This document shows positions 5,851-17,530 of a stretch of DNA of 64,000 nt, in pieces; position 1 is the stretch's first letter, and each line of letters starts with the position of its first letter. The notes under the pieces were generated by a model. The model was not told where the DNA came from and made no database searches. It saw only the letters and a program-made list of their open reading frames with translations. Made by a program: the position numbers and the translations under genes. The stretch comes from Nitrospirota bacterium (GTDB lineage Bacteria > Nitrospirota > JACRHJ01). The stretch lies in the NCBI GenBank assembly GCA_021789495.1, contig JAJYJM010000001.1:4018-68017 (forward strand). Reading direction: 5' to 3'.

Positions 5851-7132
5851 CGATTATTCCCGTCGTAGAAGCCCTGTCCACGCCAATTATTTTAACATCG
5901 ATTGGCCTGCCCGGGGCGGCATTTTTGCCGTGGAAGGCGACCCGTACGTAATTGTCCGTGAGTCCGGAGAATTTACCGTCCTTTTCCTCCGCGACGACCG
6001 TCATCGTCTTCCCGACGAGCGAGAACCGGAAGTCTATGTTCTTTTTATTACCCAGTTCCCGAAGTCTCTCGCTTCTCTCGCGTTTCGCGTCCCCCGGCAC
6101 CGGGTCTCCTATAGCATACGCCCTTGTGCCCTTTCTGGGGGAATAGCTGAAGACGTGGAGATAGTTTATCGGTGAGTCGTCTATCCGCCTCAGCGTCTCT
6201 TCAAATGCGTCTTCATCCTCGGCGGGATAGCCTACAATCACGTCCGCGCCTATGCACGCTCCGGGAGCGGCCTTTTCGATTTTTTTGACGACCGACAGAT
6301 AATCTTCCCACGTATATCCCCGGCCCATCGAGGCGAGGACTCTATCGCTTGCGCTCTGGAGCGGCACATGAAAATGGCGGCAGAGCTTTTCGTGTCTCGT
6401 CAGATCAATCAATGCCTCGTCTATCTCCATCGGCTCGACGGAACTTATGCGCAGCCTTCCAAGCCCCGGCCTTTCCAGAAGCTTCAAGACAAGGCCGGAA
6501 AGCCTTGCGTCGCCCGAATCCTTCCCGTATGCTCCGAGATGCACGCCGGTAAGCACAATCTCGTAATATCCCCTGGCTATGAGTTCGTCCGTCTTCGCCA
6601 GGACGTCTTCCGGCCTTGCGCTCCGGGAGCGGCCACGCGTATACGGGACGATGCAATACGAGCAGAAGGAGTCGCAGCCTTCCTGAACCTTCAGGAATGC
6701 GCGGGAACGCCCGCCAACTGCTTGAGCGAAGTGAGAATCCGCGGATTCAAAACAATTTGCAGGTGCCGGGTTTATCGGTATTGCGGGCGCAATTAATTGC
6801 GCCCCTACGATGTCCGGGATATTTCCCCGCCCGTCGTTCCCGACGACCACGTCTACGCCGCCGATTCCCTTTATAACGTCCGGGGCAACCTGGGCGTAGC
6901 ACCCGGCAACGAGCACCATGCCGCCCGGCTTCTTCGCCCTTACCGCCCGGCGTATCTCCCGGCGGCACTGGTAGTCGCTCTTGCCGGTAACGGTGCATGT
7001 GAAGATTACCTGCACGTCGGCCTCATTGGGCAACGCCGCAGCCTGTCCGCCGCGCGCCGAAAGGCTCTCGCCAAGCGCCGCTGCGTCGAACTGGTTTATC
7101 TTGCAGCCGAGGGTTTTTATGTGGAATTTCAT
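5843..7132 (-). CDS. MtaB-like tRNA methylthiotransferase (radical SAM MTTase)
   Basis: N-terminal TLGCKINQ UPF0004 motif. CDSFCSYC radical SAM motif. C-terminal TRAM-like region. Confidence 0.75.
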   Translation of the reverse strand: MKFHIKTLGCKINQFDAAALGESLSARGGQAAALPNEADVQVIFTCTVTGKSDYQCRREIRRAVRAKKPGGMVLVAGCYAQVAPDVIKGIGGVDVVVGNDGRGNIPDIVGAQLIAPAIPINPAPANCFESADSHFAQAVGGRSRAFLKVQEGCDSFCSYCIVPYTRGRSRSARPEDVLAKTDELIARGYYEIVLTGVHLGAYGKDSGDARLSGLVLKLLERPGLGRLRISSVEPMEIDEALIDLTRHEKLCRHFHVPLQSASDRVLASMGRGYTWEDYLSVVKKIEKAAPGACIGADVIVGYPAEDEDAFEETLRRIDDSPINYLHVFSYSPRKGTRAYAIGDPVPGDAKRERSERLRELGNKKNIDFRFSLVGKTMTVVAEEKDGKFSGLTDNYVRVAFHGKNAAPGRPIDVKIIGVDRASTTGIIDA

Positions 7133-8481
7133 ATTAGAACGCCTGCCAGCGAATGTTTTCTGCCTTCGATAACTTTTACCCGCACAAGCCTTCCGACAAG
7201 CTCCGGCGGGCCTTCAAAGTTCACAATCTTCCCCTGCCTTGTCTTGCCGGTGAGCCTGCCCATTTCTCCCGATTTGTCCGGGCCTTCGACCAGCGCCTCC
7301 TCGACAAGGCCGATGCGCGCGCTTATCTTCTCCTGCATTATTTTGTCCTGGAGTTCCAGAACCTTATACAGCCGCTCGTCCCTGACATCTTCCGGAAGAT
7401 GACCTGGTAATTTCAACGCGGCGGTATTAGGCCTGTTTGAATATTTGAAGGCGAATATGCCGTCAAAGCGAATATCCTCAAGTGCGCTTATCGTCGCCTG
7501 GAAGTCCTCTTCCGTCTCGCCCGGAAATCCTGCGATTATGTCCGTGGATACGGCGAGGTCAGGGACGGCGTCTCTCAGCGCGCCAAGCCTGTTCATGTAA
7601 TCCGTGAAGGTATATTTCCTGTTCATCCGGCCAAGCACACTGTCGGACGCGGACTGAAGCGGCAGGTGTATCGCGTTGCAGACCTTCGGGAGATTTGCCA
7701 TGGCGCCGATAAGGGAGCCGGAAAGGTCCTTCGGGTGCGAGGTTACGAAGCGGATGCGAAGAAGGCCGTCGATGGCATTTATTTCTTTTAGCAATTCCGG
7801 AAAGTTGCAGTTCTTTTCATTCATCCCCCTCTTAAGATAAGAGGGGGAAAGAGGGGGCGTTATGACAGGTTTTCCATACGAATTTACGTTCTGGCCAAGC
7901 AGCGTAACCTCCCGGCAACCGGACTTCACGAGTTCTTCTACCTCGCGGATAATGTCACCCGGTCTCCGGCTCCTCTCACGGCCCCGGACGAAAGGCACGA
8001 CGCAGTAGGTGCAGAAATTGTCGCAGCCGTACATTATGTTCACGAAGGCGGCCACCGCGCTCTCCCGCGAAGCGGGGATTGCGGTATGCTCGTAACCATC
8101 CGTGAAACGGGTGTCGATGGCGGTCCCGCCTGCGGATTCTTCAATCAGGGACGGCAATTTATCGATGTTCTGATTACCGAAAAGAATATCTATATACGGA
8201 GCCCGCCGCAGCATGGACTTTCCTTCCTGCTGGGCTATGCAGCCGGACACGGCGATTTTCATGGAGGGGTTCTGCTTCTTGAGTTCCCGGAGCTTGCCGA
8301 GCGCGCTGTAGAATTTCTGCTCCGCCTTTTCGCGGATGCTGCATGTATTGAGCAGGACGAGGCCCGCGTCTTCGAGCCTTTCGGATTCGCTGTAGCCCTC
8401 GGCTTTCAGGAGACCCGCCAGTTTCTCGGAGTCGTGCTCGTTCATCTGGCAGCCGAAGGTAAGGATTTTGAAGCTCTTCAT
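7129..8481 (-). CDS. miaB: tRNA-i6A37 methylthiotransferase MiaB
   Basis: FGCQMNEHDSE N-terminus. CDNFCTYC radical SAM motif. 450 aa MiaB-like length. Confidence 0.8.
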   Translation of the reverse strand: MKSFKILTFGCQMNEHDSEKLAGLLKAEGYSESERLEDAGLVLLNTCSIREKAEQKFYSALGKLRELKKQNPSMKIAVSGCIAQQEGKSMLRRAPYIDILFGNQNIDKLPSLIEESAGGTAIDTRFTDGYEHTAIPASRESAVAAFVNIMYGCDNFCTYCVVPFVRGRERSRRPGDIIREVEELVKSGCREVTLLGQNVNSYGKPVITPPLSPSYLKRGMNEKNCNFPELLKEINAIDGLLRIRFVTSHPKDLSGSLIGAMANLPKVCNAIHLPLQSASDSVLGRMNRKYTFTDYMNRLGALRDAVPDLAVSTDIIAGFPGETEEDFQATISALEDIRFDGIFAFKYSNRPNTAALKLPGHLPEDVRDERLYKVLELQDKIMQEKISARIGLVEEALVEGPDKSGEMGRLTGKTRQGKIVNFEGPPELVGRLVRVKVIEGRKHSLAGVLI

Positions 8482-8869: not shown

Positions 8870-9688
8870 TTATCGCTTTCTTATAAAAACCTTGTCGCCC
8901 CTCTTGAACCCGCATGTCTTTCTGGCGTCCCCCTGGCAGACGAATATCTCGAGGAACCCGCCGCCGTTTATTACGGCCCCCGTCTCGCCTTTCCTGAGCG
9001 CGGAATAAAACGGCGAGAACCCGCTTAACGCAAGCCGGCCCGCCTCGATTCCGCACTGCGCGTCCTGGCCGCAGAACTCCTCGATGTCAGAGGATGCTAT
9101 GTTGGATATGGCGTTTCCGAACTTGTCGATGTAGACAATCTCTCCGGCCACGCCGTCATTCTCCCTGCGCGAGCGCGGGATGTTGAAGCGCACGTAATCG
9201 GTTATCTCTTCGCCGAAATTCTCCGCCTCGATTCCTTTAGAGAGCCATGCCGCCGCCGGCGCGAATATGTCCCTTGCGTTAAACGTGCTGCCCTGCCAGG
9301 CGCCGGTCGACCGGCCCTCACGGAAGTAGTGGCTCGCGGTAAGATGGATTACCTTTAAAAAACCGGGGTCGGCATAGACGAAGGAGAGAACGCCGTTGTC
9401 CGGGGCGATGAAGTAATGCCTGTCCGTTACGGCGAGCACGGGCCTCCTGTCGCTCCCCACACCGGGATCGACAACGACAAGATGAATCGTTAGCTGCGGA
9501 AAATATTCATACGCCGCCCCCAGGAGGTAGGCTGCCGCCCAGATATCGTGCGACGGCACCTCGTGGGAGATGTCGATAATCGAAGCATCGGGGTTAATGC
9601 CGAGTATAACCCCCTTCATCGCGCCTGAAAAATAATCCTTCGTCCCGAAATCCGTCGTAAGCGTAATAAGTTTTTTCTTAAGGTCCAT
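8870..9688 (-). CDS. SAM hydroxide adenosyltransferase (DUF62, fluorinase/chlorinase-like fold)
   Basis: LTTDFGTKDYF N-terminal motif and length typical of the DUF62 family. Confidence 0.7.
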   Translation of the reverse strand: MDLKKKLITLTTDFGTKDYFSGAMKGVILGINPDASIIDISHEVPSHDIWAAAYLLGAAYEYFPQLTIHLVVVDPGVGSDRRPVLAVTDRHYFIAPDNGVLSFVYADPGFLKVIHLTASHYFREGRSTGAWQGSTFNARDIFAPAAAWLSKGIEAENFGEEITDYVRFNIPRSRRENDGVAGEIVYIDKFGNAISNIASSDIEEFCGQDAQCGIEAGRLALSGFSPFYSALRKGETGAVINGGGFLEIFVCQGDARKTCGFKRGDKVFIRKR

Positions 9689-11099
9689 TATTCCCTCTGT
9701 GAGCGCCGCCCATACGTTCGTATTTTTTAAAATCGAAATTAGGGCTGCGATATTCGTCGTGACATCTCGTGCAGACCTTTTCCTTCACATGGACAGGCGG
9801 GACGTTATAAGGATCCAGGTAGTTCCCCGGTCTCTCGTAGTTGTAATGCAGTCCACCCGCCCCGTGGCAGTCCTCGCAGGTGACGTTCCTTAAGTCCGTC
9901 CTTCCGCCCTTTGCCTTGTCTCCGTAGCCGGTGGGATAACCATACCCCGTGACGTGGCAAGGCAGGCACTCCGGGTCGTACTGGTCGCCCGTCTTCACCA
10001 GCGCGGAAAAAGCCCTCGCGTGTTTCGTCGAAGACCAGTTATGGTAGCTCCGCGCATGACATTTTTCGCACCTGTCAGGCCCGGCGAAATAGCCCTTCAG
10101 GCCGGTCATGTCCGTGAAAGCGAATTCTTTCTTCTTAAGCTCCTGCCTGTACTCGGCCAGAAGTTTCTCTACATCCGGGTCCGGCAGAATATCCTCCCCC
10201 AGGCGCACCGCTTTATATTTATAGCTTTTTATTTTTTTGTTCCCTTTTTTAAGCCACAGGTCGAGCCTGCCTATGAGCTTTCCCTCGTAGAAACCCTTCA
10301 CGACAATTGTATCGCCATACCGAAGCGGTTTCTTGAGTATACCGCCGTCGTCCCCAAATATTACCACGTCCGCGCCGGATTCGGCTGCGAATTTTTTCTG
10401 GTCGGAGACGCTTAAGTGCGCGAGGAGCACGACAATATCGGCCTTTTTCCGCAAGGCCCGAACCTGGCGCCTCGCCGCCGCAAGCGAGTTTTCGACCCTG
10501 AACCGCTTGAAGATGGACGGGAACGTCCCGTACGGGAATTTGTCGTCGATGACGCCGGTTATCCCGACGGTTACAGGCCCGACTTTCTTTATCATGGAGC
10601 CTTGAAACGCCAGTCCGGAGGCGGTATAAAGATTGGCGCAGATTAGCCTGTCGCCGGCTTCCCCGGCGTTATTTTTAAGCAGACCAAGCCCGAACTCAAG
10701 GTCGTATTCGCCGGGCAGTATGGCGTCGTATCCGGAAATTTTCATCGCCTTCATAAGCACGGAGGACTTGAGATTATAAAACGGCTTCCTGTCCCTGGGG
10801 TCGTCCAGGCCGTCGAAGAGCGTATCGCCCGCATCGAGCACGAGCGTTCTTTTGTTCCTGTGTGATTTTATATAGCTCGCCCTTGCGGAGAGGCCGCCCA
10901 GCTGACCGTCGGTGCAGCCGCAGCGTCTTATCATCCCGCGCGTGTCGCTGGAGAAGAATATCGTAATGCCTGGGCTTGACGCGGCATGGACGGCAACGGG
11001 AGCGGTAAACAGCAGGAACAGGATAATTCCGAAGCCGATTGACCGGCTAAGCCTGAACCTGACCGATGATATGGCGCGCGTGGTCGATTCCATTTTCAA
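9678..11099 (-). CDS. secreted fusion protein: degenerate 5'-nucleotidase/metallophosphoesterase-like domain plus C-terminal tetraheme cytochrome c
   Basis: Signal peptide. LVLDAGDTLFDG and 5'-NT-like blocks, but NDHHG is replaced by SDTRG and GNHEFD by GEYDLEF. Four CxxCH motifs in the last ~120 aa (CEKCH, CLPCH, CEDCH, CTRCH). Confidence 0.6.
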   Translation of the reverse strand: MKMESTTRAISSVRFRLSRSIGFGIILFLLFTAPVAVHAASSPGITIFFSSDTRGMIRRCGCTDGQLGGLSARASYIKSHRNKRTLVLDAGDTLFDGLDDPRDRKPFYNLKSSVLMKAMKISGYDAILPGEYDLEFGLGLLKNNAGEAGDRLICANLYTASGLAFQGSMIKKVGPVTVGITGVIDDKFPYGTFPSIFKRFRVENSLAAARRQVRALRKKADIVVLLAHLSVSDQKKFAAESGADVVIFGDDGGILKKPLRYGDTIVVKGFYEGKLIGRLDLWLKKGNKKIKSYKYKAVRLGEDILPDPDVEKLLAEYRQELKKKEFAFTDMTGLKGYFAGPDRCEKCHARSYHNWSSTKHARAFSALVKTGDQYDPECLPCHVTGYGYPTGYGDKAKGGRTDLRNVTCEDCHGAGGLHYNYERPGNYLDPYNVPPVHVKEKVCTRCHDEYRSPNFDFKKYERMGGAHRGNNGP

Positions 11100-16537: not shown

Positions 16538-16538
<1 letters not shown>

Positions 16539-17449
16539 TACACGTGCTCCTGGACCCAGCCCTCGTATAGTCCGTAACGCTCCATTACGTCCTGCGCGGC
16601 CAGGTATTCTTTCTCTGTTATCTTCCTGTCTATCTCCGGGTAATCAGCCGCCTCGTAAGTCGGGAAATACTGGTCCATTAAACTGACGGCAACCTGCGGT
16701 GATAGCTCTTTCGCTATAAATTTCAGAACCTCTTCCGTCCCGGAAATATTCTCCGGAAGGACGAGGTGACGGATGATAAGCCCGCGCGCAGCCATACCGT
16801 CGCCGTCCGTTTTAAGAAGTCCGACCTGCCTGAACATCTCCATTATTGCCGCCCGGTTATATGAGGCGTATTTCCTTGCCTTTGAATATTTCTTTGCAAG
16901 CTCGTCGTTTGAATACCTCATATCCGGGAGATATATGTCTACTACGCCGTCCAGGAGCCGAAGCGCCGGCAAGGATTCATACCCGCTCGTGTTATAGACG
17001 ATGGGGATATTGAACCCGCCTTCGACTGCGATAACCAGCGCCTCAAGAATCTGCGGCATGTAGTGCGTCGGCGTTACGAGGTTTATATTGTGCGCGCCTC
17101 GCCCCCGAAGTTCCAGCATAATCTTCGCAAGCCCGGTCGCGTCGTATTCTACGCCGTTTCCTTTGTGGCTGATGGGCCAGTTCTGGCAGTAGGCGCACTT
17201 TAATGTGCAGTGGCTGAAAAATATCGTGCCGGAGCCGCGAGCGCCGGATATTGCCGGCTCCTCGCCGAAGTGCAGGTTATACGATGCAGCCTTCGCCTTC
17301 GCGCCCGCGCCGCACAGCCCCACCTGCCCTTCCAGCCTGTTCACCCCGCAGTCGTTCGGGCACAGGTCGCATTTCTCAAGACGCGCCAGCGCGGATGATG
17401 CGCGGGAATTAAGTTCGTCGATAGAAATATTCAAACAATTTGCTTTCAT
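16538..17449 (-). CDS. radical SAM protein, PflX family (COG1313, PFL-activating-enzyme-like)
   Basis: N-terminal [12 protein letters not shown] cysteine motif followed by the [10 protein letters not shown] radical SAM motif. The listed N-terminal extension overlaps a repeat, so start is placed at MKANCLNI. Confidence 0.65.
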
Positions 17450-17487
17450 CAGTGATTTGTATGTTACCCGCCGTGAACATTGAAAGT

Positions 17488-17515
17488 CGCCGGGTTCCCG
17501 CTTTCGCGGGAATGA
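17488..17515 (-). repeat. copy of dispersed repeat (TGTCATTCCCGCGAAAGCGGGAACC)
   Basis: Read directly. Near-identical to the copy at 2788-2813. Confidence 0.6.
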
Positions 17516-17530
17516 CAATACAGATGGATC

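Follow-up and report, generated by a model that had tools for sequence, protein, structure and literature searches.

The 64,000-nucleotide stretch of DNA analyzed here, referred to below as the window, comes from a Nitrospirota bacterium (GTDB lineage JACRHJ01; assembly GCA_021789495.1, contig JAJYJM010000001.1, positions 4,018 to 68,017 of the forward strand). It carries a gene for a 473-residue protein that joins a 5'-nucleotidase/SoxB-like N-terminal domain to a tetraheme cytochrome domain. We find that this protein is a peripheral cysteine-form member of a known but functionally uncharacterized family, the UshA-like (seleno)proteins, and not a new kind of protein. A preliminary description of the gene, made from the sequence alone, had overlooked a C60-G-C62 motif in the N-terminal domain which is the cysteine counterpart of a selenocysteine (Sec) site. 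Our tentative explanation, to which we would give a little less than an even chance, is that the family functions as periplasmic thiol (or selenol):cytochrome c oxidoreductases in which this CxC/CxU center exchanges electrons with the heme chain. The gene in the window is ordinary, and the interest lies in the family, which is very large, is spread over many phyla and uses Sec in about one quarter of the sampled species.

The gene is a single, uninterrupted open reading frame (ORF) with a TTG start codon (coordinates of this and other features are given in Table 1). An alternative ATG is found at position 11093, two codons past the TTG, and a GAAAGG Shine-Dalgarno-like stretch is present upstream of the ORF. 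Inspection of the leader, which falls into a region of low predicted local distance difference test (pLDDT) values in the AlphaFold2 model (residues 1-40), predicts export of the protein, and homologues have comparable leaders or lipoboxes. The secreted 473-residue protein with a 5'-nucleotidase-like domain and four CxxCH motifs that the preliminary description had proposed was confirmed by the fold model, by a match to Pfam PF13435 and by the motif count. A protein of 471 residues, counted from the ATG, is present with identical sequence in public assemblies; one full-length relative is 82% identical and several are 65-68% identical. Among 120 listed homologues, which come from many phyla, almost all combine the two domains and contain exactly four CxxCH motifs; 13 are listed in N-terminally truncated form without the CxC motif. 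The uninterrupted ORF, the identical public protein and more than 100 homologues of the same layout rule out that two genes were fused by an assembly error or frameshift, and a curated hidden Markov model (HMM) spanning both halves contradicts it as well. We consider the chance of such an artifact, which had been raised earlier as a cytochrome region in a separate ORF, to be practically negligible.

This curated model is NCBIfam NF041198, "UshA-like (seleno)protein" (UshA_like_PCGU, an equivalog model), which the window protein matches with 277.3 bits (E 2.3e-82), a small margin above the cutoff of 275. The N-terminal domain alone matches profile positions 24-287 at 149 bits, and the last 141 residues (333-473) alone match positions 404-519 at 119.4 bits. 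An inter-domain insertion of approximately 60-110 residues (profile positions ~287-403) is missing from the window protein. The same model gives 326 bits for P0013, a relative from the same clade, and 586.5 bits over the whole profile for a Sec form from Desulfobulbia at locus L047 when U is read as C. The core of the family is of the Desulfobulbia type and the window protein is far from this core. It shares with the NF041198 family, which corresponds to that of Zhang & Gladyshev 2008, both domains, the placement of C-G-C/U, four CxxCH motifs and an exported leader. It differs from the family in being a Cys form with an RRCGC context, in the missing insertion, and in metal site 2, whose ligand positions are retained in its clade but not in most members.

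The protein had not been recognized as part of a described family, and this has to be revised in view of the match above cutoff. In addition, a CxU selenoprotein family named "COG0737, UshA-like" has been listed since the 2008 Global Ocean Sampling analysis with 76 Sec and 92 Cys sequences (PMC2398784), and it reappears in two reviews citing NF041198. No function is given for the family in PMC2398784 or in these two reviews. Literature searches on a nucleotidase-like domain combined with a multiheme or c554 cytochrome, or on the heme domain of the family, found nothing, and searches on "SoxB-like" with cytochrome found nothing useful.

When 1.84 billion cluster representatives were searched with a profile, there were 41,757 matches at E<=1e-3, 23,918 at E<=1e-10 and 6,149 at E<=1e-30, the last being representatives of 50%-identity clusters. 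All of the top 150 matches cover the whole two-domain profile. A genome scan detected the family in Myxococcota, including the cultured Sorangium cellulosum So ce26, Nannocystis punicea and Myxococcus sp. CA023, and in Bradymonadia, Desulfobulbia, Thermodesulfobacteriota, Nitrospirota, Acidobacteriota, Latescibacterota, Poribacteria, Eisenbacteria, Planctomycetota (including anammox Scalindua), Verrucomicrobiota and Armatimonadota.

Only six residues of the N-terminal domain are invariant among 36 diverse members: G55, C60, G61, C62, G68 and G91. CGC is present in 99 of 99 full-length homologues, a set preselected for the C-[G/A/S]-C motif. The fetched loci contain 69 Cys forms, 54 of which were recognized as CGC by a strict regular expression and 15 of which are missed genes with CGC on inspection; the other family genes in these loci are CG-TGA forms. 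At locus L090 two overlapping ORFs make up the split gene, and CGC lies in another frame. The DNA upstream of the truncated homologues at loci L002 and L009 continues in frame as ELAPCG-TGA-HAHPLGG and QIEPCG-TGA-NANPVGG, respectively, with the TGA at the position of C62 in both. A PCG-TGA at this position followed by an intact tetraheme ORF was found in 19 of 80 loci (one genome per species), in a scan that used a narrower alignment and is biased to members with CV[GS]CHVTGY or V[QG]CExCHG[PA]G. The window protein is a Cys form of the family: its codon 62 is TGC, not the in-frame UGA accompanied by a selenocysteine insertion sequence (SECIS) that marks a Sec-containing protein. The motif stands in the context R-R-C-G-C, compared with E-P-C-G-U/C in the family, and the preceding Pro is replaced by Arg in the clade of the window protein.

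Downstream of the TGA at locus L002 a hairpin with a folding energy of -26.4 kcal/mol (z -2.5) is predicted. The mean folding-energy z downstream of the TGA is -0.87 for Sec forms and -0.28 for Cys forms (p 0.02), which is weak support for SECIS elements. A clearer difference is seen in the pentamer GGTCT, which occurs in 10 of 23 Sec-form stretches, one of which (L090) really is a split Cys-type gene, versus 3 of 64 Cys-form stretches. The codons for the invariant Gly-Gly-Leu of Sec forms are often GGC GGT CTG and form part of a small hairpin, such as CTGGGCGGTCTGTCCAGG. Such hairpins with GGTCT lie approximately 14-32 nucleotides past the TGA at loci L040, L046, L047, L050-L052, L055, L062, L066 and L093, and resemble the fdhF SECIS of E. 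coli with its apical GGUCU loop. Sec occurs almost exclusively at redox-active sites, and the disulfide of a CxC motif is strained and typically redox-active.

The N-terminal domain retains the fold of a metallophosphoesterase, as judged by Foldseek on the AlphaFold2 model, although the Pfam family Metallophos (PF00149) does not match. The model has a pLDDT of 82.6 and a predicted template modeling score (pTM) of 0.84. Its matches in PDB include 3ive (E 2e-22), CD73 and SoxB 2wdc (E 6.5e-20) over ~320-340 columns; the alignments consist of the metallophosphoesterase domain and the linker helix and end after the helix. Structure prediction, suggested earlier as a check, recovered the 5'-nucleotidase/SoxB fold, while the HMM searches suggested alongside it matched PF13435 and neither Metallophos nor 5_nucleotid_C (PF02872) at E<=1. 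The best model of a characterized enzyme after NF041198 is that of SoxB, TIGR04486 (E 4e-20, 71.6 bits, cutoff 550), and the earlier comparison with SoxB was well chosen. With the UshA model NF007109 the score is 25.4 bits (cutoff 600). The likeness to SoxB (2wdc, 4uwq) extends to the fold of the N-terminal domain, distant sequence similarity, periplasmic location and plausible sulfur chemistry. SoxB, unlike the window protein with its broken ligand set and four hemes in place of the C-terminal domain, possesses an intact dimanganese site together with a C-terminal domain of the 5'-nucleotidase type, and it has no heme and no CxC. With UshA and CD73 (1ush, 3ive, 4h1s) the window protein shares the metallophosphoesterase beta-sandwich and the long linker helix (Foldseek E ~1e-21 to 1e-22), but it lacks their nucleotide-binding C-terminal domain, catalytic Asn-His and dinuclear site.

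Phosphoesterase motifs were placed by HMMER alignments of the close homologue P0013 with YfkN, snake-venom 5'-nucleotidase and the E. coli c4898 nucleotidase, in which the position of the motifs is unambiguous, and were transferred to the window protein via a 36-sequence alignment. This placement agrees with the substitutions in the preliminary description, SDTRG for NDHHG and GEYDLEF for GNHEFD. The seven ligands that hold two metals in active calcineurin-like phosphoesterases do not form a complete set in the window protein; an intact set upon careful alignment, named earlier as grounds for refutation, was not found. Judging from these alignments, the dinuclear hydrolytic center cannot be intact. 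Across the family, D52 is kept in 68%, a His at position 54 in 7%, D92 in 46%, H228 in 50% and H250 in 39%.

A different distribution was found in the clade of the window protein (30-32 Nitrospirota-type sequences, 44-82% identical). Here 37 of 291 positions in the N-terminal domain are invariant (13%), including D52, D89, D92, D133, N156 and H228. Position 131 is Glu in 30 of 32 sequences and Asp in two, and position 250 is His in 29 of 32 and Asp in the other three, namely the window protein and the two relatives closest to it. Three arginines, R54 (31 of 32), R58 (32 of 32) and R59 (30 of 32), are also conserved. Metal site 2 of the fold is formed by the Asp of motif II, the Asn of motif III, the His of motif IV and the first His of motif V, while site 1 requires the His of motif I. 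From this known ligand scheme and the conservation in the clade, all four site-2 positions appear capable of binding a metal there and site 1 appears broken. The clade site is possibly remodeled into an Arg-rich pocket that binds one metal, instead of being dead. Describing the domain as an inactivated scaffold, as was done earlier, seems fair for the family as a whole and too simple for the clade of the window protein, with its invariant D52, D92 and H228 and its nearly invariant E131 and H250.

The C-terminal domain matches Pfam PF13435 (Cytochrome_C554) with 49.4 bits (E 9e-13), well above the gathering threshold of 20.8. By sequence it matches cytochrome c554 of Nitrosomonas europaea (1bvb) and the c554-like part of OcwA (6i5b), and it can be aligned with c554 motif by motif through CSSCH...TAH, CVGCHVDGFG and GVGCESCHGPG. 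A separate model of residues 330-473 (pLDDT 83, pTM 0.78) has c554 (1ft6/1bvb) as its top Foldseek match in PDB (E 1.5e-4, TMq 0.61-0.67). The equivalog model of Nitrosomonas CycA, NF043010, gives 22.6 bits against a cutoff of 400. The likeness to c554 (N. europaea CycA; 1ft5, 1ft6, 1bvb) and to the N-terminal half of OcwA (6i5b) lies in the order of heme motifs (CxxCH...H, D..C..CHV.G, V.CE.CHG.G, CxxCH) and in three conserved, putatively distal His with none for heme 2. The domain differs from c554 in its size (~130 versus 211 residues) and in its fusion to an enzyme-like domain, and the two are not orthologous.

Family alignments show no conserved Met, Lys or His in the heme domain that could serve as a further ligand besides the CxxCH motifs and H360, H418 and H467. 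On the scaffold of c554, OcwA and MccA, heme 2 is an open or active-site heme, and distal ligands are conserved except at heme 2 (PMC6703420). Because there are three candidate distal His for four hemes, and because of the alignment with heme 2 of c554, the heme left without a ligand in the window protein is probably heme 2, which would be open as in c554. This heme may either be five-coordinate or receive a sixth ligand from the N-terminal domain, where C60 and C62/Sec are the only conserved candidates.

Further indications of function come from fusions and neighbors in relatives. In nine distinct loci the gene directly upstream, read from the same strand, encodes DUF1573; eight of these loci are from Planctomycetota (including Scalindua, Pirellulales, Thermoguttaceae and Phycisphaerae) and one is from Armatimonadota (Fimbriimonadales). 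A conserved (S/T)xCxC(T/A) motif is found in eight of these nine DUF1573 proteins, the one at L065 having CC instead, and P0139, P0176 and P0207 carry DUF1573 fused N-terminally to the module. Selenoprotein reviews list DUF1573, too, as a selenoprotein family, with UGC as its motif. We found no publication of its pairing with the UshA-like family. At L003 a 651-residue AhpC-TSA/Redoxin-domain protein is encoded divergently (6299-8254, reverse strand), two genes upstream of the pair of DUF1573 and family gene, in a genome that resembles those of planctomycetes.

Three proteins of ~1200 residues from the representative library (P0121, P0122 and P0125) begin with a heme-less UshA-like domain containing PCEC or PCDC. 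This is followed by a DsbA-like thioredoxin domain, a Cys-rich segment, ~250 residues without assignment, and a UshA-like CGC or CRC domain with four hemes. At the DsbA-like active site P0122 has CPHC and P0125 has CIHC. This layout resembles a multi-step thiol relay in one chain. A related arrangement is found in P0105 (452 residues), in which a CPHC-containing domain of the thioredoxin fold, TlpA/AhpC-like, is joined to two c554-like tetraheme modules (8 CxxCH). At loci L011-L014 a heme-less PCGU paralogue follows directly downstream of a PCGC tetraheme member. The paralogue at L011 (9448-10467) has an in-frame TGA (EIEPCG-TGA-HKSQKGG) and was called as two genes of 52 and 266 residues; it scores 158.9 bits with NF041198 (N-terminal domain only) and 45.5 bits with NF049981, below both cutoffs. 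Overall, the CxC/CxU domain appears to behave as an autonomous thiol-type redox unit that has repeatedly been joined to thioredoxin-fold or CxC partners and to c554-type modules.

All-against-all BLAST clustering of the ORFs from ~88 loci identified no neighbor conserved across phyla besides DUF1573. The larger clusters are antisense ORFs, generic response regulators, ATP-binding cassette ATPases, or synteny within a lineage such as rpsP with a Ser/Thr kinase in Myxococcota. At L002 and L004 an ORF of ~345 residues overlaps the end of the family gene at its stop codon. These two ORFs were considered as a shared partner and rejected; they are not homologous and belong to no Pfam family. At L009 (4544-6817) a rhodanese and a class-V aminotransferase of the cysteine desulfurase/selenocysteine lyase type are encoded just upstream of a Sec form. 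These genes possibly reflect a link to sulfur or selenium trafficking in this one lineage.

The use of Sec, the fusions to DsbA- and TlpA-like domains and the CxC motif of the DUF1573 partner lead us to favor a redox role of the CxC motif. A redox function in place of hydrolysis had already been suggested in the preliminary description, and we also judge it likely. We propose that the signal peptide exports the protein and that four c-type hemes would be attached in the periplasm. The N-terminal domain has retained the 5'-nucleotidase/SoxB fold without the dinuclear hydrolytic center, and its working group would be the C60-G-C62 loop, situated at the entrance to what was the active site. We infer that this loop cycles between dithiol and disulfide, or selenylsulfide where C62 is Sec, and that it trades electrons with the c554-like heme chain, through which it would be linked to electron transfer in the periplasm or in respiration. 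The likeliest partners would be thiol or CxC/CxxC proteins of the DsbA-like or DUF1573 type, or sulfane-sulfur and thiol compounds, and electrons could flow in either direction.

Several observations weigh against such an oxidoreductase. The fusions and the pairing with DUF1573 are seen in lineages other than the clade of the window protein, neighbors are not conserved across phyla, and the housekeeping cluster around the gene contains no redox partner, either in the window or in the Nitrospirota relatives. In addition, D52, D92, E131, H228 and H250 of the clade, together with R54, R58 and R59, have the look of a pocket for a small molecule or metal and not of a bare relay loop. The assignment of the DsbA-like domain is weak as well, with 25.8 bits for Pfam DSBA against a threshold of 25.6 and 25.0 against 23.2 for Thioredoxin_4; its top matches in PDB are all of the DsbA type, with E values from 0.016.

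In a bolder form of the oxidoreductase proposal, which we regard as unlikely as it stands, the family would represent a previously unrecognized type of enzyme in which CxC/CxU on a gutted phosphoesterase fold couples disulfide or selenylsulfide exchange with DsbA-like or DUF1573 partners to c554-type hemes. Such an enzyme would be a bacterial counterpart of Mia40-Erv1-cytochrome c and an alternative to DsbB/VKOR. In a still more unusual variant, Cys or Sec could serve as sixth ligand of the open heme 2, which would then be a natural heme-selenolate site. The Mia40 (CPC)-Erv1-cytochrome c and DsbA-DsbB-quinone relays are alike in the proposed logic only, with a CxC motif coupling protein thiols to c-type heme or the respiratory chain. 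They have no relation to the window protein in sequence or fold, and the latter has no flavin or quinone and would contain all components in one polypeptide, which makes this an analogy and not a homology. The family's catalogued Sec site sits on a phosphoesterase fold without a dimetal center and is joined to a c554-type tetraheme module with a probably open heme, and fusion and adjacency tie the family to DsbA-like domains as well as to another orphan CxC/UGC selenoprotein family, DUF1573. If the oxidoreductase proposal is true, a role would be assigned to two orphan selenoprotein families, and a new route would connect periplasmic thiol and sulfur chemistry with respiratory cytochromes.

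The main rival explanation, in our opinion doubtful, would combine the CxC/CxU loop with the open heme 2 into a single catalytic site that acts on a small inorganic compound, for instance sulfite, thiosulfate, tetrathionate, polysulfide, selenite or a nitrogen oxide. Cys or Sec could act there as the sixth heme ligand, as a persulfide carrier or as a ligand of an adjacent metal, while in the clade of the window protein the site-2 ligands and the Arg cluster would bind an anion or metal. The ligand count supports such a site, since only H360, H418 and H467 are invariant for four hemes and any sixth ligand conserved across the family must be C60 or C62/Sec. A pocket with clade-invariant D52, D92, H228 and R58 and near-invariant E131, H250 and R54 fits well, SoxB is the nearest characterized enzyme, and the rhodanese and class-V aminotransferase upstream of one Sec form are also in line with it. 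SoxAX and TsdA (His/Cys heme) and MccA (heme 2 and Cu held by two Cys) provide an analogy, with an open heme 2 on an NrfA/c554-type scaffold, a conserved Cys pair and a plausible sulfur-cycle context. In the window protein, unlike in these enzymes, the Cys pair is located in a separate phosphoesterase-fold domain and its reach to the heme is conjectural. CxC/CxU domains without heme exist (the first domain of P0121-type proteins, the L011-L014 paralogue and the family NF049981), so that the motif works without heme 2 in cis; this speaks against a composite site throughout the family. Outside the clade no polar pocket is conserved in the N-terminal domain beyond CxC and D133, the links to DsbA and DUF1573 favor protein thiols as partners, and heme 2 of c554 is five-coordinate yet is no proven catalytic site.

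CxC/CxU might form a soft-metal site for Cu(I), Hg, Cd or As, with the protein taking part in periplasmic metal handling or detoxification and the hemes altering the redox state of the metal. CxC and Sec motifs do occur in several metal-handling selenoprotein families, such as those of the MerT, ZntA and HgcA types, listed in the selenoprotein reviews, and DUF1573, an Ig-like domain with CxC, has a plausible shape for a metallochaperone. We nevertheless find this improbable, as no metal-resistance genes adjoin the gene in the ~88 clustered loci and the fusion partners are thiol oxidoreductase domains of the DsbA and TlpA types, not metal transporters. An inert pseudo-enzyme scaffold or docking module with a structural CxC, leaving the protein a plain tetraheme carrier, has a similarly small chance. 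It would be consistent with the loss of canonical catalytic residues and with eukaryotic CD73, in which the loop at the equivalent aligned position has a structural disulfide, but not with the absolute invariance of CGC, nor with the replacement of Cys by Sec in about one quarter of the sampled species, which is unexpected for a structural cysteine. The typically redox-active nature of a strained CxC disulfide and the invariance of former active-site residues in the clade also speak against it. Finally, it is very improbable that the protein is a still-active 5'-nucleotidase, phosphoesterase or SoxB-type thiosulfohydrolase carrying a cytochrome domain. The fold, the distant sequence similarity to UshA, CD73 and SoxB and the kept ligand positions D52, D92 and H228 would allow for it; these are outweighed by the replacement of His by Arg in motif I, of Asn-His by Glu-Tyr in motif III and of His-x-His by Asp-Asp-Gly in motif V, and by the profile results, in which Metallophos and 5_nucleotid_C are absent and SoxB remains far below its cutoff.

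Table 1. Features of the gene and protein in the window, and DUF1573 genes adjoining family genes at other loci (positions refer to the window unless a locus is named).
Feature	Position	Strand	Basis
Whole ORF, 473 residues	9678..11099	-	NCBIfam NF041198 member
Predicted signal peptide, residues 1-39 (RFRLSRS, hydrophobic core, VHA/AS)	10983..11099	-	sequence inspection
5'-Nucleotidase/SoxB-fold (metallophosphoesterase-like) N-terminal domain, residues 40-305	10185..10982	-	Foldseek, HMM, HMMER against PDB
Motif I, canonical D-x-H, here D52-T-R54; metal-site-1 His now Arg	10938..10946	-	HMMER alignments
C60-G61-C62, codons TGC GGC TGC; C62 is the Sec (TGA) position in relatives	10914..10922	-	family-invariant
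Motif II, canonical G-D kept as G91-D92; bridging Asp retained	10824..10829	-	alignments
Motif III, canonical G-N-H-E/D, here G130-E131-Y132-D133	10701..10712	-	HMMER alignments
Motif IV, His kept as H228; invariant in Nitrospirota clade	10416..10418	-	alignments
Motif V, canonical G-H-x-H, here G249-D250-D251-G252; clade relatives mostly G-H-S/G	10344..10355	-	HMMER alignments
Inter-domain helix, residues 308-324, equivalent to 5'-nucleotidase linker helix	10128..10178	-	DSSP of model; Foldseek alignments run through helix
Cytochrome c554-like tetraheme domain, residues 338-467	9699..10088	-	Pfam, PDB sequence matches, Foldseek
Heme 1 motif, C344-E-K-C-H348	10056..10070	-	
H360, invariant non-motif His, putative distal ligand; aligns with c554 His27	10020..10022	-	alignments
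Heme 2 motif, C378-L-P-C-H382; aligns with c554 heme 2 CVGCH	9954..9968	-	alignments
Heme 3 motif, C408-E-D-C-H412	9864..9878	-	
H418, invariant non-motif His, putative distal heme ligand	9846..9848	-	alignment
Heme 4 motif, C443-T-R-C-H447	9759..9773	-	
H467, invariant or near-invariant non-motif His, putative distal heme ligand	9699..9701	-	alignment
DUF1573 gene, L003	8684-9817		
DUF1573 gene, L006	8654-9862		
DUF1573 gene, L054	4726-5802		
DUF1573 gene, L065	2279-3391		
DUF1573 gene, L078	3871-5079		
DUF1573 gene, L079	4946-5983		
DUF1573 gene, L084	4349-5965		
DUF1573 gene, L085	4769-5884		
DUF1573 gene, L090	4044-5147		

The genomic setting in the window is a string of carA, a radical-SAM (S-adenosylmethionine) gene, carB, greA, pyrK, pyrD, the gene itself, a SAM hydrolase gene (SAM_HAT), a response regulator and miaB. 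The 5' end of the gene overlaps the stop codon of pyrD by ~50 nucleotides (11047-11099), and its 3' end overlaps the downstream SAM hydroxide adenosyltransferase-like (SAM hydrolase-like) gene by 11 nucleotides (9678-9688). No sox genes adjoin it, the neighbors being pyrD, the SAM hydrolase and miaB. No CxxCH motif is present in any other ORF of at least 100 residues in the whole window, and neither a DUF1573 gene nor a second cytochrome was found there. The housekeeping string from carA to miaB is kept in relatives L001 and L008 (66% and 48% identity) and is uninformative about the function of the gene. The gene of an exported cytochrome is embedded here among cytoplasmic functions of pyrimidine synthesis and tRNA modification. 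The radical-SAM family gene is located between carA and carB in the window (16538-17518, reverse strand) as well as at L001 (3777-4481) and L008 (2727-3644).

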